Counted from the stretch's first letter, positions 21,352 to 48,901 are shown. The stretch: DNA of 64,000 nucleotides from Sedimentisphaerales bacterium (GCA_030628155.1 DAOVRL010000001.1:2351-66350); one strand, 5' to 3'. Translations and numbers: made by a program. Notes: generated from the sequence alone by a model not told the origin.

Positions 21352-22029
21352 TTACCCGTATTCCCGCTCGTAAACGTGCCTCCTAACTGAGTGTGTTCTG
21401 ATAATGTCGTCTCTTACTTGGAAAGTCCAACCGGGCTGAATGCCCAGAATAAAGCGTTCTAATGCTTCCAAAGCAGGGTAGTCGTTCTGGCCGGTGAAAC
21501 AACGCGCATCGTCAATAAGTATAGCGTGGTCGGCGGCCTTTCTATGACTCAATATACATTCCAATTCCTGGATTATGGGTGTTTCAAGATCAGCTTTTGC
21601 AGTTGAACCGCCTGACCAATGAGCGTCAAGCCAGAATAGACAGGGCTCGCTGATGTTCATCAAGACTTCCGGCAGGACTTCGCCACTTTCGCCTTGAATA
21701 ATGTGAATATTGGGATACCCGGCAAACCTTCTCTGAGCGTTCCGACAATGGGTTTCATCAAGTTCAATAGAGTAAATCTCCCTTATGTGAGGCATAACCG
21801 CATAAACCATCTTCCCTTTATAGGTGCCGGTCTCAATGAATATCTCGGGCAAAAACTTCTCAATATATTCTATGACGACCCGCTGCTTGCCTAAGTTAGG
21901 CATGGGTAGTTGTGAGCCGCCTTTTTCCCACCGCCGCAACTTTTTCTTAAGCTGTCTTTTTCTTTGGAATCTACCGAGAATTCCAAGCGGAGTTGAACGC
22001 TCTATAAAATATTTCAAAGGTTCCTTCAT
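21352..22029 (-). CDS. putative class I SAM-dependent methyltransferase
   Basis: FIETGTYKGKMVYAV ... IYSIELDE ... NIHIIQGESGEVLPEVL ... LFWLDAHW fits a Rossmann methyltransferase layout of the kind seen in O-antigen clusters. Confidence 0.55.
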   Translation of the reverse strand: MKEPLKYFIERSTPLGILGRFQRKRQLKKKLRRWEKGGSQLPMPNLGKQRVVIEYIEKFLPEIFIETGTYKGKMVYAVMPHIREIYSIELDETHCRNAQRRFAGYPNIHIIQGESGEVLPEVLMNISEPCLFWLDAHWSGGSTAKADLETPIIQELECILSHRKAADHAILIDDARCFTGQNDYPALEALERFILGIQPGWTFQVRDDIIRTHSVRRHVYEREYG

Positions 22030-22034
22030 TATCC

Positions 22035-22211
22035 CTACTCTGGAAACTTTGTTATAACGTTCGCCTGTTCTTCTCCAAAGGGCTCCACCCTACACAGGAT
22101 GCGTGTTTGAAACAGTTCTACTGGGAAGTGTTTATAAAGGCTCTGAAGGTAGGCGGCAACCTCCAAAGCGGCCTTTTTAGCGGATAGAACGTTGCTTATC
22201 AGTTCTTGCAT
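22035..22211 (-). pseudogene. 58-aa fragment paralogous to the N-terminus of the 24335..25264 protein
   Basis: MQELISNVLSAKKAALEVAAYLQSLYKHFPVELFQTRILCRVEPFGEEQANVITKFPE aligns without gaps to MNKMISNIVFTKNRPLQLHAYLESLYRSFPSELIQTYLIYKVELFDAEYEQLCRKFSN, with 24 identities in 58 by hand count. Confidence 0.45.
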
Positions 22212-22231
22212 GGTATACTCACGACTTGGGA

Positions 22232-23110
22232 CTAAACAATATCTCCATAGATTTTCCTTCGGTGTTTCCGATGTAATTTTGTAATGCAATAATAATTAAA
22301 GCGTTCTATCATTTTTTTTCTGATGGTGTTGTCCTCAACTTTAATTGCATCCAGTAGCTTGGCAAGCCAATCATCAATAAGCTGTTTTGTTAGTAAATAT
22401 GGTGTCCACTTCACAAAACTAGCGGCCTCAAATATTAGTATTTCGGAACTGCGATTATTATGAAACTTTGCGTTCTCAAAATCCAAAACAAAAGCGTCTG
22501 GATTTGAGCCCTTGTCACCGAGCATAACAGCGTGCAAATTAATCTCTATATTATTACACTTTGCATTGTAAAGGTCAACGAAGACAGGAATGGTACGGCT
22601 AAGTATCTCGGCACATTTTTGTTCGTCGCCTCTATTCAATTTCAACAGCTCATCAACTGAGATATAACCACTCAAATCCTCAAGAATTACTACGGTCATC
22701 TTTGTCAGCCGAAAAGAATCATATATACTACTATAACCGTAAACTTTCGGGACGTTTAATCCTCGACTGGCGGCAATAATTAAGTTCGCCGCCTCACTAA
22801 ATCCAAGTGTACAGGTTTTCATTAGAAGATATTTCAATCTGTGCTTAAAACGAAACACAGGACACACTTTCACAACAAAAGAGTCTTCGTTGAATTGTGA
22901 GGGTTTGACTCGAAAAACGACTCGGTCGCCTTTTGCCCCTTTAAGGAGTTGAAAATTATCCGGCAGAGATGATTCTTTAGATTTGTTCATCACAGACAGA
23001 ACAGATTGAGCCACAGGAAGCAGATTTTCGTTTCTGAGCAAAAAGGTAGCCGCCTTAGAATGACGGTATCTGAATTTCAGCACATCTTTCAATAGTCTCG
23101 ATTTATTCAA
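22232..23110 (-). CDS. hypothetical protein, possibly a protein-kinase-like fold (LPS kinase-like)
   Basis: VVKVCPVFRFKHRLKYLL ... VVILEDLSG ... NLHAVMLGDKGSNPDAFVLDFENAKF loosely matches the Kdo/WaaP kinase layout. The gene is very AT-rich and has a TTG start. Confidence 0.5.
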   Translation of the reverse strand: MNKSRLLKDVLKFRYRHSKAATFLLRNENLLPVAQSVLSVMNKSKESSLPDNFQLLKGAKGDRVVFRVKPSQFNEDSFVVKVCPVFRFKHRLKYLLMKTCTLGFSEAANLIIAASRGLNVPKVYGYSSIYDSFRLTKMTVVILEDLSGYISVDELLKLNRGDEQKCAEILSRTIPVFVDLYNAKCNNIEINLHAVMLGDKGSNPDAFVLDFENAKFHNNRSSEILIFEAASFVKWTPYLLTKQLIDDWLAKLLDAIKVEDNTIRKKMIERFNYYCITKLHRKHRRKIYGDIV

Positions 23111-23298
23111 GGCAGGCCTGTAATCCTATCATAATTCCGTATTTGCGAAATATCCACCACGAGTAGCAGAATATCATAACCCAAATGAACAAAATCCTTT
23201 GGCCAAGTTGGGCATTTAATCCACGAATATGTTTGAACTCTCATATACAATGTCGCTACCTGTAAAAGGAGTGGCTTTGGTTTTTTGCATAGCCGCAG

Positions 23299-24405
23299 CT
23301 ACTGAGAAACTATGGGTTTTACACTAACGCTTATTTCTCTCGACAAGGGCCCCGGCATTTTCCAGTTAGGCTTTGGATCGTTTTTTTTACTGAGCAGAGA
23401 GAACTTTAGTAAATCAAAATAAAGACGAATATCAAAAGGGTAATAACAAATGGCACGTTTAATAAAAACTATCGCAGCGGTTCTATTGAGTGATTGAGCA
23501 ACAGCTTTGGCTGCCCTTCGATACTTATGACTAATCGATCTCTTTGCAACTATAGAAGGAACGAATTTGTCACCCCCTAACCGATAATAGAATCTTTCAA
23601 ATGACAAAATGCCGTTACACTGATCATCCACGGAAAGATCTTTCGATATACTTCCAGGTATTTCTCTTCGAAAAACATGTGCATCTGAAACAAATAAAAA
23701 TGGGGTCTTTACGGAAAGCCTCATAAAAGCATCGTTGTCTTCTCCTGTTCGCAAAGCCTCATCAAAGAAAAAACCTTGCAGGACATCTTTTCTGAATAGA
23801 GTAGCTGAAGGCATAATGCATGGTCCTGCTCTAAAGAAAGACTTTGTTAGCCATCCAGACTTATAACGTTCATCTCTTGCAAACGGCTTTGTTTTCCCAT
23901 CGTCAGACATTAACATGACACGAGCATAAGCAGCACCAAATTCGATTTGTCCCTGCAGACGGTCCATCATGACCTCTAAATAATTAGCTGGCCACAGATC
24001 GTCATGGTCTAAAAAAGCAATATATTGGCCCCCTGCTTTCACCAATCCAAAATTGCGTGCGCTGCAATGTCCCCCATTATCCTTGTAGAAGTATTTTACC
24101 CTGGAATCTGATATCTGCTCAACAAGCGAGCGGGTGTTGTCAGTAGAGCCATCATCAACAACTATGGCTTCAAAGTCCGTACGGCTTTGGCGCAAAACAC
24201 TTTCAATCGCCTCTTTAACCAGGTTACTGCGATTATAGGTAGGAATTATCACACTGACTCTTGGCACAGAAATTCCTGCAAAACACAACAGCGTTAATAT
24301 TGCGCTATTCAGCCACCCTTGACATATTATCTTACTAAGGATTCTTTGCAAGTCTGAAGAATTCTGATCCCGAGTGGGTTGACGTCGGCTTGTCTTGATA
24401 AACAA
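23299..24405 (-). CDS. glycosyltransferase family 2
   Basis: VSVIIPTYNRSNLVKEAIESVLRQSRTDFEAIVVDDGSTDNT plus the DHDD region (AFLDHDDLW). The N-terminal extent is uncertain: it overlaps the upstream gene by 71 nt, and in-frame GTGs lie just before VSVIIP. Confidence 0.85.
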   Translation of the reverse strand: MFIKTSRRQPTRDQNSSDLQRILSKIICQGWLNSAILTLLCFAGISVPRVSVIIPTYNRSNLVKEAIESVLRQSRTDFEAIVVDDGSTDNTRSLVEQISDSRVKYFYKDNGGHCSARNFGLVKAGGQYIAFLDHDDLWPANYLEVMMDRLQGQIEFGAAYARVMLMSDDGKTKPFARDERYKSGWLTKSFFRAGPCIMPSATLFRKDVLQGFFFDEALRTGEDNDAFMRLSVKTPFLFVSDAHVFRREIPGSISKDLSVDDQCNGILSFERFYYRLGGDKFVPSIVAKRSISHKYRRAAKAVAQSLNRTAAIVFIKRAICYYPFDIRLYFDLLKFSLLSKKNDPKPNWKMPGPLSREISVSVKPIVSQ

Positions 24406-41642: not shown

Positions 41643-42512
41643 TCAAAACGCTCTTCGTCTTCGCAGCCAGCCAACCAGGCCCGCGCCAATGCTGCCTAAC
41701 AAAATAGCACCGGGTGCAGGGATAACCGTGAAGCCGTTTTCTAGCTGTACGGGTATACCGTCCAAGGTGAAGTCGTCCAGGTAGGACGTCTTGTCTTCTG
41801 TTACGCCGCCGCCGCCAGTCCGCATGAGGACCATTTTTATGGTCGCGTTGCTAAAGTCATACGTGTTGCCCCAGGTGGTGGTGATGGGAGCCAGGTTCTG
41901 AAACTCGCTCCACATTATGGCGTTCGACTGCGTCGCGATGTCATGGCCGCCCAAGTAGTTGCCGGAGCCATCCCACGCGAAGAACTGATATGGGTAGCGG
42001 GTCGAACTGTCCAGATTAACCCAGGTGTCGCCTGGGATCGCCTTTGCGCCGTCTCCGGGCTGATCCCAAAGTACGTTGTGCGGCATGACGTTGAACAGAA
42101 CGTCATAGCCATAGTCAGTGCCACCGATTACCATGTTGGGATACGACGTATCAAGGCACATGGTAAAATTGACCCCATGGAAACTGTAAGGTCCGCGATC
42201 GACAACAACCGTGTTTCCGTGGCCATCGTCACCCCAGATAGGGGACTTGGGGCTTTTTGTCCAATAATCCCAGCTGGCAAAGTCCTTGACCTTGGGATCA
42301 CCCAGGTTCGTGACCTTCACGCCCGCGTAGTGGATAGCATCTTTCGGGTAGTACAACTCCAGGGAGGAATTGCCGACCTTGGCCTCCGTAGTAACCCACT
42401 GTATCGTGCCCAGGTTGTAGGTGTACTCCGTTACTGTCGGAAGAGCCTGGGCCGTCTCTGGCACCGCCAAAATCATTGTCATTACTAAACAAATTGTAAT
42501 TAACTTCTTCAT
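41643..42512 (-). CDS. PEP-CTERM sorting-domain protein
   Basis: N-terminal signal peptide. C-terminal VIPAPGAILLGSIGAGLVGWLRRRRAF gives P-A-P plus a TM segment plus an Arg cluster. Confidence 0.85.
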   Translation of the reverse strand: MKKLITICLVMTMILAVPETAQALPTVTEYTYNLGTIQWVTTEAKVGNSSLELYYPKDAIHYAGVKVTNLGDPKVKDFASWDYWTKSPKSPIWGDDGHGNTVVVDRGPYSFHGVNFTMCLDTSYPNMVIGGTDYGYDVLFNVMPHNVLWDQPGDGAKAIPGDTWVNLDSSTRYPYQFFAWDGSGNYLGGHDIATQSNAIMWSEFQNLAPITTTWGNTYDFSNATIKMVLMRTGGGGVTEDKTSYLDDFTLDGIPVQLENGFTVIPAPGAILLGSIGAGLVGWLRRRRAF

Positions 42513-43087: not shown

Positions 43088-43116
43088 TTGACTATATGGT
43101 CAAACAACCATATAGC
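43088..43116 (+). promoter_or_regulatory. lexA promoter candidate with an embedded perfect palindrome (operator candidate)
   Basis: TTGACT (43088-43093), a 17-nt spacer, then TATAGC (43111-43116). CTATATGG-tcaaacaa-CCATATAG (43092-43115) spans the spacer and both hexamers. Confidence 0.5.
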
Positions 43117-43165
43117 ATAATAAGGCTGTTTGGGTACTGATTGTGAAGCCATCGGGGTATTGATT

Positions 43166-43786
43166 ATGAAGGCATTAACTAAGAGGCAGCACGAAGTGCT
43201 TATATATGTAGAGGGCCGTCTGCGGGACAATAATCCGCCGAGCCAGCGGGAGATCGCCGAGCACTTCGGGCTGGCCCAGAACGCCGCTTATCAATTGGTG
43301 AGGTACCTCAAGAACAAAGGCTACCTTACAGATTCAGGCGGGCATCGCCGGCTCAGGCTCTCTAAGGAATACATCGGGAGCAAAGAACCAGGCGAGGGCA
43401 TCCCCGTTGTCGGTCGCGTAGCAGCGGGTGAGCCGATATTGGCCCAGGAGAATATCGAAGGATATGTGAACCTAAAAAAGCTGTTCGGCCGGTCCGAGGA
43501 TGCGTTTCTGCTGAAAGTCGTTGGCGATAGTATGGTCGATGAAGGTATTATGGACGGCGACCTTGTGCTGGTCAAACCCAGCTCGACAATTGATAACGGG
43601 CGAATCGGCGTGGTGCTGCTGGATGACGAGGCAACGGTTAAAAGGGTGTATATCCAAGCCAATCGAATAGCGCTTAAATCCGCCAACCGCGCCGCCGGGT
43701 ATAAGACCCGATACATAAAACGGGCCGAAAGAGACGTTCGTATAATCGGTAAGGTGATAGGCTGTTTAAGGACGGATATACATTAG
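43166..43786 (+). CDS. lexA: LexA repressor
   Basis: MKALTKRQHEVLIYV winged-helix N-terminus. Cleavage-site region VVGRVAAGEPILAQENIEGY. Ser/Lys dyad context GDSMVDEGIMDGDLVLV ... TVKRV. Confidence 0.95.
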   Translation: MKALTKRQHEVLIYVEGRLRDNNPPSQREIAEHFGLAQNAAYQLVRYLKNKGYLTDSGGHRRLRLSKEYIGSKEPGEGIPVVGRVAAGEPILAQENIEGYVNLKKLFGRSEDAFLLKVVGDSMVDEGIMDGDLVLVKPSSTIDNGRIGVVLLDDEATVKRVYIQANRIALKSANRAAGYKTRYIKRAERDVRIIGKVIGCLRTDIH

Positions 43787-44008
43787 TAGTGGTCTGTTGC
43801 AGTTTAATTGATGGCTGTCATTGCGAAGGAGCGAAGCGACTGCGGCAATCTCAAGCCTCAGTGCGCAAAAACCGGCTATTTTCTTGGGAGCGCAGCGAAG
43901 CAGTCTCTCTTATTCGAAGGCAGGAGATTGCCACGGCCTTTCAGGCCTCGCAATGACAATAGAATACGCAGTACGTCATTGCGAGGAGCGAAGCGATGAA
44001 GCAATCTC
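43787..44008. repeat. composite REP/MITE-like cluster (leader box TAGTGGTCTGT plus three REP units: forward, reverse, forward)
   Basis: Units: GTCATTGCGAAGGAGCGAAGCGACTGCGGCAATCTC (43817-43852); GAGATTGCCACGGCCTTTCAGGCCTCGCAATGAC (43924-43957); GTCATTGCGAGGAGCGAAGCGATGAAGCAATCTC (43975-44008). Confidence 0.75.
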
Positions 44009-44120
44009 GACTTTTTCAATAGGCCCTTGTGCGGGAACGACAAATTGTATTACATTGTTACTGAGCTAACACTTACGGTGGTAGCGGATTCAGAAGCAGT
44101 TACTCTGAATAGGGATAAAA

Positions 44121-44972
44121 ATGGATGGTCGAATTTACATAGGGATAGCGGGCTGGTCGTATGCGGACTGGAACGGGATTGTCTATACACAATCGGGGGT
44201 CGATAAGCTCGAATATGTCAGCGGCTTTGTCGATGTAATCGAGATTAACAGCACGTTCTATCGCCCCCCCGCCGAGCGAAACAGCGTATCCTGGCTGAAG
44301 AGGACCTCGGCCAATCCGCAGTTTTTCTTTACCGCCAAACTGCACCGTGAAATTACCCACGAAGGCAAAATCGACCCGGCAACCGTCAAGCAGTTCCATA
44401 CGGGCTTTAAGCCTTTGCTCGACGAAGGCAAATTGAGACAACTGCTGGTGCAGTTCAGGTACGACTTTGCCGATTCGCAGCAGAGCCGGCGGCATCTATC
44501 CGAGATAGTGAAGAATTTTTCCGAAACGTTCAGCTTAGTGGTGGAGGTCAGGCATAAATCCTGGCAGATGCCGGGTGCGCTGAATTTCCTCCAGGGGCTC
44601 GGCGTTGCCGTCTGCAATCTCGATTATCCGACCACGTGGAACTCATTCGACATGCAGCTTTGCACGGTAGGCACAAACGGTTATTTCAGGATGCACGGAA
44701 GAAACAGAGAAAAGTGGTTCAGCAAGGCCGGCAGGGATGAAACTTACGATTACTATTACGAGGACAGTGAGCTTGCTCAGATAAAAAAACGGCTCGATAA
44801 ACTGGCCAAGGCCTTCGAATCGCTCACCGTTATCGCCAACAATCACTACCGGGGCGCCGAGCTTGCCAATGCACTTGAGCTAAAGGCGCTGGTTACGGGG
44901 CAAAAACAGCCCGTCCCCGAGGGTCTTTTAAGGAGTTATCCGGACCTGGCAAGGATTGCCTTAAATGTATAA
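44121..44972 (+). CDS. DUF72 (YecE/UPF0759) family protein
   Basis: IYIGIAGWSYADWNGIVY ... IEINSTFYRPP ... VQFRYDF ... the family-typical pattern. Confidence 0.9.
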   Translation: MDGRIYIGIAGWSYADWNGIVYTQSGVDKLEYVSGFVDVIEINSTFYRPPAERNSVSWLKRTSANPQFFFTAKLHREITHEGKIDPATVKQFHTGFKPLLDEGKLRQLLVQFRYDFADSQQSRRHLSEIVKNFSETFSLVVEVRHKSWQMPGALNFLQGLGVAVCNLDYPTTWNSFDMQLCTVGTNGYFRMHGRNREKWFSKAGRDETYDYYYEDSELAQIKKRLDKLAKAFESLTVIANNHYRGAELANALELKALVTGQKQPVPEGLLRSYPDLARIALNV

Positions 44973-45010
44973 TCGTTCATTAGATTGTCGTTCGTCAGGG
45001 TGGAGAAGGT

Positions 45011-47890
45011 ATGCGCATAGCCGCACTTGCCTGCAGGAGTTACTACAGCCTTTTGAGAGGGCCGGTCTCGGTGCAGCGGCTCGTCCAAAGGGCCAAGGAG
45101 TACGGCTACGGCGCCATTGCCCTAACGGACGTCAATTCGATGTATGGGGCGGCGGATTTTTGCAAATCAGCCAAACAGGCAGATATAAAGGCGGTCCTCG
45201 GCGTAGAGATTCTGACCGATACCCAAAGGGCCGTGCTGCTTGCCGAGAGCAGGGCTGGGTATGAAAATCTTTGCAGAATAACTACGGCAAGAAACCTCGA
45301 TACCAACTTCTGCCTGATTGAGCAGCTAAAGAGGCACAACAAAGGTCTTATCTGTATTTGCTCCCAACAAAGGCTGCTAAAGCTCCTGCAAGAGATATTT
45401 CACAGGGATTATCTATTTGCCGGCTGTAAAGGGCCGGCACCGGCTAAGTGGGCAAGGGCGAATAAGATAGCAGCTATCGCCTGCGAAGATTTCAACTACC
45501 TGGATGACAGCGATATAGTTACAGCCAGGCTTTTGGCAAGGATAAGGCGGTTAAGCGTGGCCGGGCCGGGGCCGCCGGATTGCTGCGGATTCAATAAGCT
45601 CATACCAGAAACGCAATTCAGGCGAAGGTTTCCGGGCTGCCCTGAAGCGCTCCGTAATGCCGAACAGATAGCTCAGCGCTGCAACTTCCAATTACTAAAC
45701 GGACGGTATTTCTTACCTAAAGTCAAGCTTACCAAAGGCAGAGCCGCCGACGCCGAGCTGGCCAGACTTTGCCACATTGGCCTTGCGAAGAAATATAATC
45801 CCGTGGACAAGGAAATTGTTAAGCGGCTCGAACGCGAGCTGGCAGTCATACGAAAGAACAAGTTCAGTGATTACTTTCTGGTGGTCCACAGGATAGTCAG
45901 CTTTGCAAAGCAAAACGGCATTGCCGTAGAAGTGCGCGGCTCGGCGGCGGGGTCGCTCGCGGCACATTTATTAGGCTTTACGAGGGTATGCCCTATTGCG
46001 AACAATCTATACTTCGAGCGTTTTATGAACCCCGGCAGAAAAGACTGTCCCGATATTGATATTGACTTTTGCTGGAGAAGGCGGGACGAGGTGATAAAGT
46101 TCTGCTACGAACACTGGGGATATGAAAACGTCGCAATGATTTCAAATATCAACAGATACCGCCGTCGCAGCGCCATTCGAGACGTGGGAAGGTTCCTCGA
46201 CCTGGAGCCAAACCAGATAAACGAGCTTGTCAACACGCGAAAACCAAATCCCGATTCTGCCGTCTATAAGTTAGCTGAGAGGATAATGGACGTGCCCAGG
46301 CACTTAGGCGTCCACTGCGGCGGCATCGTTATCACTCCCAAGCCGGTCAGATGTATCGCACCTCTCGAGCGGGCAAACAAAGGCGTGATTATAACTCAAT
46401 ACGATAAAACGGCCGCCGAGGCCGTGGGGCTGGTTAAGATCGACCTCTTGGGTAACAGGGCGCTTTCAACAGTAAACGAGGCGGTGCATATTATCAGCAA
46501 GCCCGCTAAGAGTATGGACATCGACGCCATAGACCCAAACGATGAAAAAACAGCGAAGCTGCTAATCGCCGGTGACAGCCTCGGCGTATTTCAATGTGAA
46601 TCGCCGGGGATGAGACAACTTTTGCGCGGGCTTAAGGTCAAGAGCAAGAAAGATGCCGCAATCGCCCTGTCGCTAATCAGGCCCGGCCCCGCTTCAGGTG
46701 GGATGAAGGCCGAATTCATCGAGCGGCACGTCAATGGAAAGCCGTTCCGGTATCTGCACCCGAAAATGAAGGATGTCCTCGGTGACACTTACGGCGTTAT
46801 GCTGTATCAGGAGGATGTGATGCGGATAGCCGTTGAGATCGCCGGCTACAGCCTGGCCGAGGCCAACCAGTTCAGGACGGAGGTGTCGAAGAAGGTTTCC
46901 GCCGTGCGTCTGCAGGCCCAGTATGTCGATTTCGTATATTCCAAGGCCGAGCAGGAAGGGATCGACCGCCAGAGTGCCGAGGCTATCTGGGAGCAGATAC
47001 TGAAATTCGCCGCCTATTCGTACTGCAAGGCCCACGCGACGGTATATGCCAATATCGCGTGGCAGACGGCCTTTCTGAAGGCGCACTATCCGCAGCAGTT
47101 TTATACCTCGCTGTTTAACAATCACCACGGGATGTATCCGCTGAGGGTCTATGTGTGGGAGGCCATAAGGCACGGCATAAGGATACTGCCGCCCCACGTC
47201 AATCGCAGCCAAATTGAGTGGTCACCGCAGGGCAGAGCCATTCGCGCGGGTTTGAATATCATCAAGGGCCTAAGTTACAGCGTAACGGACGCAATTGTTC
47301 GCCAAAGAAAGATTAGGCCTTTCGCCGACATAGACGACCTGCGCACGCGGGTAAAGTTCAATCGGCCGCAGTTGCAAAACCTTATTCACGTCGGCGCCTG
47401 TGACGGCTTAGGCAAAACCCGGCCTGCGATGCTGATGCAGTTACATTATGCGCCTTTGGACCCGAATCAACTGCTGCTCTTTGATCTCTACAATAATCCA
47501 TCACGAAAACGACTGCCCGAATACGACCGGATAGCGAAATTGAAAGCCGAGGTTGACGTTACCGGAATTCCATTTAGCCTCCATCCGGCGCTGTTGCTGC
47601 AGATAAAGCACACGCCAACGGCCAGCCTGAGCAGATTCATCAACAGGGAAGTTACCGTAGCCGGCTTTGTGGCCACCGCACGACGGGCCAGGACCAGCAA
47701 CGGCCGGGTAATGGGCTTTGTAACATTAGAGGATTCCACCGGCCTGGCAGAGATAACCTTCTTTCCCGATAAGATAAACCTGTATCAAAACATCTGTTCG
47801 GCCGGGGGGGCGATCTGGATAAAAGGCAAAGTTACCGAGCATCTATCATCGATTACTTTAGAAGGCAGGGATTGCGGCAGAGTGGCGTAG
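45011..47890 (+). CDS. dnaE2: DNA polymerase III alpha-subunit family protein, short DnaE2/ImuC-like
   Basis: GGAGAAGGT precedes the ATG. PHP-like N-terminus, Pol III alpha core (PRHLGVHCGGIVITP, LLGNRALS, YCKAHA) and a C-terminal OB fold (VTVAGFVATARRARTSNGRVMGFVTLEDSTG). At 959 aa it is shorter than replicative DnaE. It lies downstream of lexA. Confidence 0.75.
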   Translation: MRIAALACRSYYSLLRGPVSVQRLVQRAKEYGYGAIALTDVNSMYGAADFCKSAKQADIKAVLGVEILTDTQRAVLLAESRAGYENLCRITTARNLDTNFCLIEQLKRHNKGLICICSQQRLLKLLQEIFHRDYLFAGCKGPAPAKWARANKIAAIACEDFNYLDDSDIVTARLLARIRRLSVAGPGPPDCCGFNKLIPETQFRRRFPGCPEALRNAEQIAQRCNFQLLNGRYFLPKVKLTKGRAADAELARLCHIGLAKKYNPVDKEIVKRLERELAVIRKNKFSDYFLVVHRIVSFAKQNGIAVEVRGSAAGSLAAHLLGFTRVCPIANNLYFERFMNPGRKDCPDIDIDFCWRRRDEVIKFCYEHWGYENVAMISNINRYRRRSAIRDVGRFLDLEPNQINELVNTRKPNPDSAVYKLAERIMDVPRHLGVHCGGIVITPKPVRCIAPLERANKGVIITQYDKTAAEAVGLVKIDLLGNRALSTVNEAVHIISKPAKSMDIDAIDPNDEKTAKLLIAGDSLGVFQCESPGMRQLLRGLKVKSKKDAAIALSLIRPGPASGGMKAEFIERHVNGKPFRYLHPKMKDVLGDTYGVMLYQEDVMRIAVEIAGYSLAEANQFRTEVSKKVSAVRLQAQYVDFVYSKAEQEGIDRQSAEAIWEQILKFAAYSYCKAHATVYANIAWQTAFLKAHYPQQFYTSLFNNHHGMYPLRVYVWEAIRHGIRILPPHVNRSQIEWSPQGRAIRAGLNIIKGLSYSVTDAIVRQRKIRPFADIDDLRTRVKFNRPQLQNLIHVGACDGLGKTRPAMLMQLHYAPLDPNQLLLFDLYNNPSRKRLPEYDRIAKLKAEVDVTGIPFSLHPALLLQIKHTPTASLSRFINREVTVAGFVATARRARTSNGRVMGFVTLEDSTGLAEITFFPDKINLYQNICSAGGAIWIKGKVTEHLSSITLEGRDCGRVA

Positions 47891-48052: not shown

Positions 48053-48901
48053 CTATCTGGCGATTTCTTTGCGCAGCCATTCGATGCTTTGCTCGATCTT
48101 TCCAGGCGCCGCTTCACATTCTATTGACAGCCAACCATCCCAGTCGATTTCCTTGAGCAGCTCGATACAGCCCGCGATGTTCTCGGCGTTGACGCCTTCC
48201 CCGATACCGACGACCGAGCAGGCGATGCCGGTCATCCCGCCGCGGACGGCCTCGGCAAGCTCTTCGCTGACGTCCTTGATGTGGCAGTGCGAGACCTTGT
48301 CGCGAAACCGCTTTAGAAACTTGACCGGGTCCTGCCCCGCGATAAAGACATTGCCCGTGTCCATGTTCATCTTCAAATACGGCGAGTCATAGAAGCCGAG
48401 AATCTGCTCCATACTATCCGGATCGGTTGTGTAGGGTCCGTGCGGCTCGACATTGATAATGATGTCATATTCCTGGGCCCAATCGAGCACGACGCGGTAG
48501 TACTGCTTCATAAGGACCATCACCTCGTCGTCGGTGTAGCCTTCGGGCTTGCGTCCGCCGTCTGTCGTGTCCACGCAGGGGCAACCGAGGCCCTTGGCGA
48601 ACTGGATGGTCCGAACCGTGTAGCCGATCCCGCGGTGCTGACCCTCGGGGCAGGACATTGGATAGGCAGCGTCGAGCTGGGAGGCCTTCAGACCCATTGA
48701 GTCCAGGTAGCTCTTGAGCTTGAGCGGGTCGGAATGAAGGGGGATATGAGGATTATAGCCCAAGGCCTGGACGAAGTAGTCCCCGTCGATGGTGCCGAAC
48801 TCGACGTACTCCATATCGTGGTCCTTGGCAACCTGGCAGGGAACGTCATAAGAGACGTCGAAGTGGCGCCAATTGTCAACGTGCATGCTTAGCTTTATCA
48901 T
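48053..48901 (-). CDS. xylose-isomerase-like TIM-barrel protein (sugar phosphate isomerase/epimerase family)
   Basis: AAAGGAG RBS. VEFGTIDG ... IINVEPHG ... NMDTGNVFIAGQD ... HCHIKD ... SIECE is a metal-ligand pattern typical of AP_endonuc_2. Confidence 0.85.
   Translation of the reverse strand: MIKLSMHVDNWRHFDVSYDVPCQVAKDHDMEYVEFGTIDGDYFVQALGYNPHIPLHSDPLKLKSYLDSMGLKASQLDAAYPMSCPEGQHRGIGYTVRTIQFAKGLGCPCVDTTDGGRKPEGYTDDEVMVLMKQYYRVVLDWAQEYDIIINVEPHGPYTTDPDSMEQILGFYDSPYLKMNMDTGNVFIAGQDPVKFLKRFRDKVSHCHIKDVSEELAEAVRGGMTGIACSVVGIGEGVNAENIAGCIELLKEIDWDGWLSIECEAAPGKIEQSIEWLRKEIAR

Follow-up and report, generated by a model that had tools for sequence, protein, structure and literature searches.

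To our knowledge, all characterised DnaE2 systems rely on a scaffold, either ImuB or a Y-family DNA polymerase (PolY), and in the imuA-imuB-dnaE2 system clamp binding is attributed to ImuB. A DnaE2B class was published recently (Timinskas, Kazlauskas, Timinskas and Venclovas, Nucleic Acids Research, 2026; PMC12926913), in which the usual partner of the polymerase is an active or inactivated PolY (the latter iPolY) with a RecA-NT motif, or ImuB-C; the modules described are PolY-DnaE2B-RecA, iPolY-DnaE2B-RecA and DnaE2B without identified partners. In the PolB2 mutasome operons described by the Venclovas laboratory in 2025, the B-family polymerase PolB2 has iRadA and PPB2 as partners and DUF72 is only partially enriched (PMC11791011). 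Here we describe a lexA-DUF72-polymerase cassette of a Sedimentisphaerales bacterium, located at positions 43,088 to 47,890 of a stretch of 64,000 nucleotides (GCA_030628155.1 DAOVRL010000001.1:2351-66350). This whole stretch is called the window below, and coordinates without a contig or locus label are counted from its first letter. The source is a 4.34-Mb draft genome in 271 contigs that is 92% complete; by its close named homologs it belongs to Phycisphaerae/Sedimentisphaerales in the phylum Planctomycetota. The three genes probably make up a self-contained, LexA-autoregulated lexA-DUF72-dnaE2B operon that would be induced by DNA damage and would pair a clamp-binding, non-proofreading polymerase with a DUF72 protein acting on DNA. 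The features of the cassette are the following.

43088-43116, + strand: candidate promoter, with a -35 hexamer TTGACT at 43088-43093, 17 nt, and a -10 hexamer TATAGC at 43111-43116
43094-43113, no strand: candidate LexA operator ATATGGTCAAACAACCATAT, a perfect 20-bp palindrome ATATGGT-N6-ACCATAT
43166-43786, + strand: lexA, 206 aa, TIGR00498, with LexA_DNA_bind and Peptidase_S24 domains
43787-44120, no strand: lexA-DUF72 spacer of ~335 bp, with hairpin repeats like repetitive extragenic palindromes or miniature inverted-repeat transposable elements (REP/MITE-like)
44121-44972, + strand: DUF72 TIM-barrel protein, 283 aa, PF01904
45011-47890, + strand: DnaE2B-like DNA polymerase III (Pol III) alpha paralog, 959 aa, with PHP, DNA_pol3_alpha, finger, HHH_6 and OB domains
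47468-47482, + strand: predicted internal beta-clamp-binding motif Q820-L-L-L-F824 (QxxLF), seen in 26 orthologs

A preliminary description of this DNA had placed three open reading frames (ORFs) here as lexA, a DUF72 gene and a Pol III alpha-family gene; domain matches confirmed the identities, and the coordinates and + strand stand as listed above. The polymerase starts 38 nt past the end of DUF72. To define the orthologous loci, we used an alignment-guided scan with one genome per species, which gave 80 loci, 64 of them encoding an ortholog (55-94% identity). Gene orders were counted by homology search of six-frame translations and are independent of ORF calling. The order lexA-DUF72-polymerase is kept in 46 of the 55 fully informative orthologous loci (Sedimentisphaerales/Phycisphaerae genomes), and DUF72 lies directly 5' of the polymerase in 53 of the 59 informative ones; lexA stands with the polymerase without DUF72 at four loci, and the polymerase has neither gene at two. 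The gaps are usually 0-18 bp between lexA and DUF72 and 15-39 bp between DUF72 and the polymerase, as is typical of operons. Co-occurrence of the three genes greatly exceeds chance expectation.

The ~335-bp spacer between lexA and DUF72 in the window appears to be a secondary REP/MITE-like repeat insertion into the operon. Its repeat core CATTGCGAGGAGCGAAGCGA is present in ~36-51 copies in the genome, and the spacer shows strong predicted folding. A same-genus genome has a shorter gap (178 bp) at the same place. A terminator was sought on the + strand of the spacer and none was found. The genes around the cassette vary between genomes, and among 24 same-family genomes an ortholog was found in one, the same-genus genome, and not in the other 23. 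The G+C content across the cassette is 0.48-0.52 vs. 0.54-0.57 on either side. Given the variable flanks, patchy distribution and lower G+C, the cassette behaves as a mobile unit.

The cassette LexA matched the TIGR00498 equivalog at 168 bits (cutoff 111), with PF01726 and PF00717 both present. Direct reading of the translation gave a cleavage site at A87-G88 and a catalytic dyad S122/K159. The genome encodes a second LexA-like repressor (C6:21887-22555, - strand; 222 aa, helix-turn-helix (HTH) and S24 domains) that is 33% identical to the cassette LexA, and the region upstream of it holds no copy of the cassette palindrome. Because of this second LexA, the one in the window can be cassette-dedicated; in the simplest reading it would be a paralog dedicated to the cassette. 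The C6 repressor may be the general SOS LexA. A further gene (C243:1311-2321, - strand) encodes a 336-aa protein with two XRE-type HTH repeats and an S24 peptidase, which is phage CI repressor-like.

Most orthologous loci have the palindrome ATATGGT-N6-ACCATAT ahead of lexA, at a distance of 25-50 bp. We built a 25-bit weight matrix from 29 sites upstream of lexA in these loci and scanned the genome with it; the cassette palindrome was the sole strong site (31.3 bits; runner-up 19.6). In a scan of 885 kb of orthologous loci, a matching site lay upstream of lexA in 43 of the 49 loci with lexA, and one weak stray site was the only match elsewhere. Where lexA is not adjacent, all four loci carry the site directly upstream of DUF72 or of the polymerase, and these sites serve as an independent check since they had been left out of matrix building. 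A wider regulon was considered and rejected: the runner-up sites, none above 19.6 bits, are either intragenic or in surroundings without a tie to DNA repair, so they give no evidence for one.

In the window, the palindrome starts right after TTGACT and overlaps TATAGC, which lies 17 nt downstream of TTGACT. CATAAT (43116-43121) was also considered as the -10 hexamer, but it is 22 nt from TTGACT and TATAGC at 17 nt fits better; neither was listed by the consensus scan. We regard the palindrome over the promoter as a putative operator for the cassette LexA, and its position is consistent with self-repression. It is not known to match any described LexA box, and a literature search on Planctomycetes LexA-binding motifs turned up no motif like it. 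The palindrome supplies a candidate LexA operator for a Planctomycetota lineage.

The preliminary description reported no ImuA or ImuB in the window, and the absence extends to the whole 92%-complete genome. Neither an IMS (Y-family) domain nor a DUF6504/ImuB-C domain was found in the genome, and tblastn searches of it with real ImuA, ImuB, and active and inactive PolY proteins from annotated cassettes gave no matches. The sole match of the ImuA model NF033429 in the genome was RecA itself; this model is a weak test (below cutoff even in a Caulobacter control) and was replaced by tblastn. No Y-family gene was found in the 64 orthologous loci with flanks of up to 8 kb. The IMS domain is absent from four of five other module-carrying genomes (three of those four are closed chromosomes), and the fifth has one remote DinB-like gene. 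What is really missing is the PolY/iPolY partner usual for the DnaE2B group. The lack of PolY looks derived because the nearest outgroups of the window clade are PolY-linked. PolY association is typical of DnaE2B and not defining, since the published classification allows a few DnaE2Bs without a found partner (PMC12926913).

The polymerase failed both the NCBIfam DnaE1 model (674 bits, cutoff 1002) and the NCBIfam error-prone DnaE2 model NF004225 (608 bits, cutoff 939), and so did all of its nearest relatives. True DnaE2A proteins from annotated imuA-imuB-dnaE2 plasmid cassettes scored 1374-1515 bits on NF004225. A separate DnaE1 of 1152 aa with an intact PHP motif is encoded on contig C244 of the same genome, which rules out that the window polymerase is the sole replicative polymerase and bears out the earlier suggestion of a non-replicative enzyme. 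DnaE1 proteins are 1150-1320 aa long vs. 959 aa for the cassette polymerase, and Lentisphaerota genomes (the sister clade) likewise retain a long DnaE1; the short paralog is thus accessory in all genomes checked. In a search of 1.84 billion cluster representatives, the clade was reduced to one representative; identity to all others did not exceed 47%, and most of these were 1000-1100 aa in length.

Phylogenetic placement was examined in a 195-row FastTree, a 36-row IQ-TREE with a mixture model, and a third tree to which labelled DnaE2B and DnaE2A references were added. The reference rows were N-terminal sequences of author-labelled polymerases from the supplement of Timinskas et al. (2026). 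DnaE1 (including the C244 copy) and DnaE2A formed separate clades with support of 99-100, apart from the window clade. In both FastTree and IQ-TREE, the window clade and its Lentisphaerota sister clade (support 99) fell inside a large accessory-polymerase group, and in the full-length tree the group enclosing the window clade had support of 95-98. A bipartition with support of 88 put six of the seven author-labelled DnaE2B references together with the window clade, away from DnaE1 and DnaE2A, and the Mycobacterium tuberculosis and Arthrobacter DnaE2A references grouped with proteobacterial DnaE2A. A Streptomyces plasmid 'dnaE' (L129) was tried as a DnaE2B reference and dropped as a long-branch outlier without a PolY neighbour. 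The gene contexts of the relatives (lexA-PolY-polymerase; ImuB-C...PolY-polymerase; PolY-polymerase in Acidobacteriota; or no partner) match the description of DnaE2B (PMC12926913). The label dnaE2-like in the preliminary description holds in that the enzyme is an accessory DnaE2-type polymerase; it is, however, not a canonical DnaE2 (DnaE2A), with 608 bits against the cutoff of 939. It nests among DnaE2B-type polymerases, and the data fit an accessory enzyme of the C family that belongs to this type, which is independent of ImuA/ImuB.

Some further observations were made on the relatives. In two Acidobacteriota loci (L114:1628-6447 and L117:6691-11168), the gene immediately preceding that of a DnaE2B-like polymerase (~1060-1080 aa) encodes a Y-family polymerase whose catalytic motif DVDAFFASVEQ is intact; in L114 an XRE-like HTH gene is divergent from this pair. 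In the sister clade, where Lentisphaerota sequences cluster, a paralog of ~960-990 aa is found near ligA (NAD-dependent DNA ligase), which is directly 3' of the paralog in L097 and one gene off in L122; a DUF72 gene lies 4.7 kb upstream in L122.

The preliminary description had read the first PHP motif of the polymerase as A-L-A-C-R-S, and this reading was correct. Taq DnaE and the genome's own DnaE1 have HLHxHS..SLLDG and TDHGN; the window clade has AALACRS..SLLRG and TDVNS. At the PHP positions H, H, D and H, the substitutes are A, A/R, R and V. The palm aspartates are kept (D348/D350 in PDIDID and D478 in KIDLLG). The OB fold is the last domain of the protein, and a tau-binding C-terminal domain is absent. 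As judged from these residues, the PHP proofreading site appears to be dead and the palm active site intact.

Between the HhH and OB domains, the polymerase carries the sequence NQLLLFD, in which Q820, L823, F824 and D825 are invariant in 26 orthologs. Its counterpart in an alignment with E. coli Pol III alpha (PDB 5FKU) is the internal clamp-binding motif of that enzyme. The pattern Q-x-x-L-[F/L] is kept in both PolY-less clades (Sedimentisphaerales and Lentisphaerota), as in DnaE1, and the motif Q is lost in most PolY-linked relatives and in DnaE2A. We infer that the polymerase would bind the beta clamp directly.

The intact palm residues and the DnaE1-like internal clamp motif could also point to a second, moderately faithful enzyme, used for gap filling in DUF72-initiated excision repair or for replication restart, in which case the cassette would be non-mutagenic. 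The polymerase has no Y-family partner, of the two NCBIfam models DnaE1 gives it a slightly higher score (674 bits) than the error-prone one does (608 bits), and having a putative lesion-processing enzyme as partner is reminiscent of nick-and-resynthesise repair. We nevertheless think this unlikely, as the PHP proofreading ligands are lost and the polymerase nests among DnaE2B enzymes whose relatives sit in lexA-PolY operons. Fidelity is unreadable from sequence, and this alternative overlaps the reading that we favour, with mutagenesis as the sole point of difference.

The large DUF72 family occurs in both bacteria and archaea; three of its structures have been solved by crystallography, and we know of no established function for it. 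The cassette copy (44121-44972) matched PF01904 at 157 bits (cutoff 25). A generic second DUF72 is present in the genome (C199:27876-28526; PF01904, 230 bits) and shares 28% identity with the cassette copy; the combination of one generic and one polymerase-linked DUF72 is also found in several related genomes. The DUF72 tree splits with support of 99 into a generic clade (26 copies), none of which has a polymerase, PolY or lexA in its flanks, and a linked clade (34 copies, the cassette copy among them), in which 33 are polymerase- or PolY-linked. The branching of the linked clade mirrors the polymerase tree. The cassette DUF72 is part of a separate subfamily whose members are almost exclusively neighbours of translesion polymerases and which has co-evolved with them.

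The preliminary description had raised the possibility that the DUF72-polymerase adjacency is confined to this genome. Instead, it is clade-wide, and DUF72 also neighbours related polymerases in different gene orders, in further families and in a second phylum. Desulfosarcina ovata plasmid Do28_1 (NZ_AP021877.1) carries lexA-DUF72-PolY-polymerase, and its PolY is without both catalytic aspartates (INVADFAVAVE vs. DVDAFFASVE in active enzymes). Other Phycisphaerae families have a related polymerase in PolY-polymerase-DUF72 arrays, co-directional or convergent, and in nine genomes of three GTDB families, coordinate comparison puts DUF72 no more than ~2 kb from the second polymerase paralog. DUF72 is convergent with PolY in two further genomes (L165, G047:C225; L163, G119:C341), and the stretches examined there hold no Pol III alpha paralog, which suggests that the linked DUF72 subfamily follows translesion polymerases generally and not DnaE2B alone. 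There are at least four arrangements (lexA-DUF72-polymerase; PolY-polymerase-DUF72; lexA-DUF72-iPolY-polymerase; PolY convergent with DUF72), and the linkage spans both orientations and two phyla.

The persistence of the linkage through at least four gene orders, both orientations and two phyla makes it very improbable that DUF72 is a passenger, that is, an unrelated metabolic TIM-barrel gene captured once by a mobile SOS cassette and having no functional tie to it. Such a capture would agree with the mobile-unit behaviour (variable flanks, related plasmid cassette, patchy distribution and lower G+C) and with a fold search that favours sugar epimerase-like barrels over nucleases. However, the linked DUF72s are a clade of their own apart from the generic copies in the same genomes, DUF72 is retained in 53 of 59 loci although PolY was lost, and an independent report ties DUF72 to polB2 damage operons (PMC11791011). 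In that report, DUF72 was enriched beside LexA-linked polB2 operons, and this remark on polB2 neighbourhoods is the sole link between DUF72 and a translesion polymerase that we found in the literature (PMC11791011). DUF72 and LexA are unmentioned in the available portions of the main text and supplements of PMC12926913, and DUF72 is unmentioned in a 2019 Y-family paper.

The profile of the cassette DUF72 matched TM1631 (PDB 1VPQ) with E=5e-48. An AlphaFold2 model of the cassette protein (predicted local distance difference test, pLDDT, 92.4) superimposed on 1VPQ with a template modelling (TM) score of 0.79-0.85. Invariant polar residues (E41, N43, K73, H80, Q111, E142, R144, D168, R190, H192, N240 and H242) are found in this model at the C-terminal ends of all eight strands, which is the classic active-site position in a TIM barrel. 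TM1631 residues N44, Y47/Y48, K72, H79, Q114 and R145 align with the invariant N43, F46/Y47, K73, H80, Q111 and R144 of the cassette copy. These TM1631 residues are the proposed DNA/phosphate contacts, and a DNA-lesion endonuclease function has been predicted for TM1631 by computation only (Konc et al., 2013; PMC3828134).

The polar or charged nature of the invariant residues, at the active-site position of a TIM barrel, is less easily reconciled with DUF72 being a structural subunit that stands in for the PolY/ImuB scaffold, for instance as a bridge from the polymerase to RecA or the clamp, and that is no DNA enzyme. A replacement would explain how the clade manages without PolY, iPolY, ImuB or ImuB-C, whereas its nearest relatives have one of them, and the co-evolution of DUF72 and the polymerase is as expected of interacting subunits. 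On the other hand, the polymerase has its own clamp motif, and DUF72 coexists with PolY or iPolY in related cassettes, which makes it an added component and not a substitute. We consider a purely structural role improbable.

The reading that we prefer is a damage-induced operon of two enzymes under its own repressor. In undamaged cells, the cassette LexA paralog would sit on ATATGGT-N6-ACCATAT over the promoter and repress all three genes. Upon DNA damage, activated RecA would bring about LexA self-cleavage at A87-G88 and the operon would be turned on. The polymerase would reach stalled or gapped primer ends through direct beta clamp binding, without the Y-family scaffold of its relatives, and would perform non-proofread translesion or gap-filling synthesis. 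DUF72, with its enzyme-like constellation of invariant residues, would act on the damaged DNA itself, most likely as a phosphodiesterase that processes lesions or ends, nicking or cleaning the substrate so that the polymerase receives a usable 3'-OH. For the cassette, the regulatory and evolutionary anatomy is well supported; the biochemical roles of DUF72 and the polymerase are what we infer from it.

A bolder version, which we put forward only tentatively, is a two-enzyme, SOS-controlled 'nick-and-resynthesise' pathway that has no Y-family polymerase, in which DUF72 would be a new class of DNA-lesion or blocked-end phosphodiesterase, generating or cleaning a 3'-OH where the damage is, and the clamp-binding, non-proofreading DnaE2B would extend directly from this end. 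If true, it would provide a function for the whole DUF72 family including E. coli YecE, and a C-family translesion polymerase able to work without a Y-family or ImuB scaffold. The overall interpretation in the preliminary description, an SOS-type module without imuA/imuB with DUF72 as a DNA-damage partner, is supported with the refinements given here; of the outcomes that could count against it, a sole replicative DnaE, an imuA/imuB set elsewhere in the genome and an adjacency unique to this genome were examined, and none was encountered.

Several points weigh against the operon model as we propose it. The promoter hexamers TTGACT/TATAGC were picked out by visual inspection and are absent from the output of the consensus scan (it passed over TATAGC because its rule requires T at position 6), and the promoter position is backed only by the overlapping conserved operator. 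The pairing of the operator with the cassette LexA was drawn from position and conservation. The ~335-bp repeat insertion parts lexA from DUF72 in the window and could attenuate read-through. As the genome is 92% complete, the absence of PolY in this genome alone is no proof. The connection between the clamp motif and PolY absence is a correlation among related sequences, with exceptions; the Desulfosarcina polymerase, for example, keeps the Q despite its iPolY. The bipartition that holds the DnaE2B references has only moderate support (88), and the Streptomyces coelicolor DnaE2B fragment falls outside it. This fragment ends before the palm motif and sits on a long branch near DnaE2A, and we treated it as uninformative.

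The fold search with the DUF72 model also did not single out nucleases. After the DUF72 structures, its best matches were sugar 3-epimerases, GH84 enzymes and MbnB at a TM score of ~0.5, and neither endonuclease IV nor UVDE was in the top 50 matches. The sugar 3-epimerases share the xylose-isomerase-like barrel superfamily with endonuclease IV and UVDE. An hhalign comparison of DUF72 with the PF01261 (AP_endonuc_2-family) protein of the window was negative (probability 0.14%). Neither comparison supported a likeness of DUF72 to endonuclease IV or UVDE. The preliminary description had pointed to a structure-based prediction for a Thermotoga DUF72 protein; this prediction is published (Konc et al., 2013; PMC3828134), but our fold search gave no specific endonuclease-IV-like support. 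Since the fold search was negative, the case for DNA processing rests on gene context and the published structural arguments, and a nuclease function may be suggested for DUF72 only weakly.

Other features of the window were noted near the cassette. Immediately upstream, 41643-42512 (- strand) encodes a 289-aa secreted protein without a Pfam match, which has a C-terminal PEP-CTERM-like sorting tail PAPGAILLGSIGAGLVGWLRRRR. Just 3' of the polymerase and convergent with it is a xylose-isomerase-like TIM-barrel gene (48053-48901, - strand; PF01261, the family of endonuclease IV). In only one other locus (L042) was an ORF found at the same position (282 aa), and the gene is for this reason probably unrelated to the cassette. 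The region 22001-24000 has a G+C content of 0.40 vs. the window average of ~0.54, and could mark foreign DNA or an RNA gene region.

Compared with the imuA-imuB-dnaE2 cassettes of Agrobacterium, Burkholderia and M. tuberculosis, the locus likewise has an accessory C-family polymerase with an inactive PHP domain and no tau-binding domain, is damage-regulated (here putatively), and appears to move between genomic contexts. It differs in having no ImuA/ImuB and in a polymerase that fails NF004225, belongs to a separate clade and has the Q of the clamp motif, which DnaE2A proteins are without. With TM1631, the cassette DUF72 shares clear homology and the conserved residues proposed for DNA/phosphate contact; it differs in that the cassette copy belongs to a polymerase-linked subfamily, apart from the generic DUF72 copies, and endonuclease IV and UVDE were not recovered by our fold search. 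In the PolB2 case, too, DUF72 is enriched beside a damage-inducible translesion polymerase operon that is often LexA-linked, but here the polymerase is of the C family and DUF72 is an operon member in ~90% of loci.

The Do28_1 cassette is similar in that lexA and then DUF72 come first, the polymerase is of the same broad group and DUF72 is of the same linked clade. It differs by an inactivated Y-family gene between DUF72 and the polymerase, and the two polymerases are 34% identical and in different subclades. With the DnaE2B modules, the locus shares an accessory Pol III alpha paralog of ~960-1020 aa with a substituted PHP domain in a genome without imuA/imuB. Unlike them, it has no PolY, iPolY or ImuB-C at the locus or in the genome, DUF72 is a conserved operon member, and the polymerase keeps the full QxxLF motif, in contrast to most PolY-linked DnaE2Bs.

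What is new is a three-gene, PolY-less form in genomes without a Y-family polymerase, with its own clamp motif and a clade-wide operator. Consisting of a repressor, DUF72 and a polymerase, it is the smallest DnaE2-type system that we found. The cassette offers a natural test of whether a DnaE2-type polymerase reaches the replication clamp alone. That DUF72 is the operon partner of a damage-type polymerase in ~90% of loci, and that its polymerase-linked members are a clade of their own which co-evolved with the polymerase through several gene orders and two phyla, is strong genomic-context evidence for a DNA-damage role, and the DUF72 family gains a testable role in the handling of damaged DNA.

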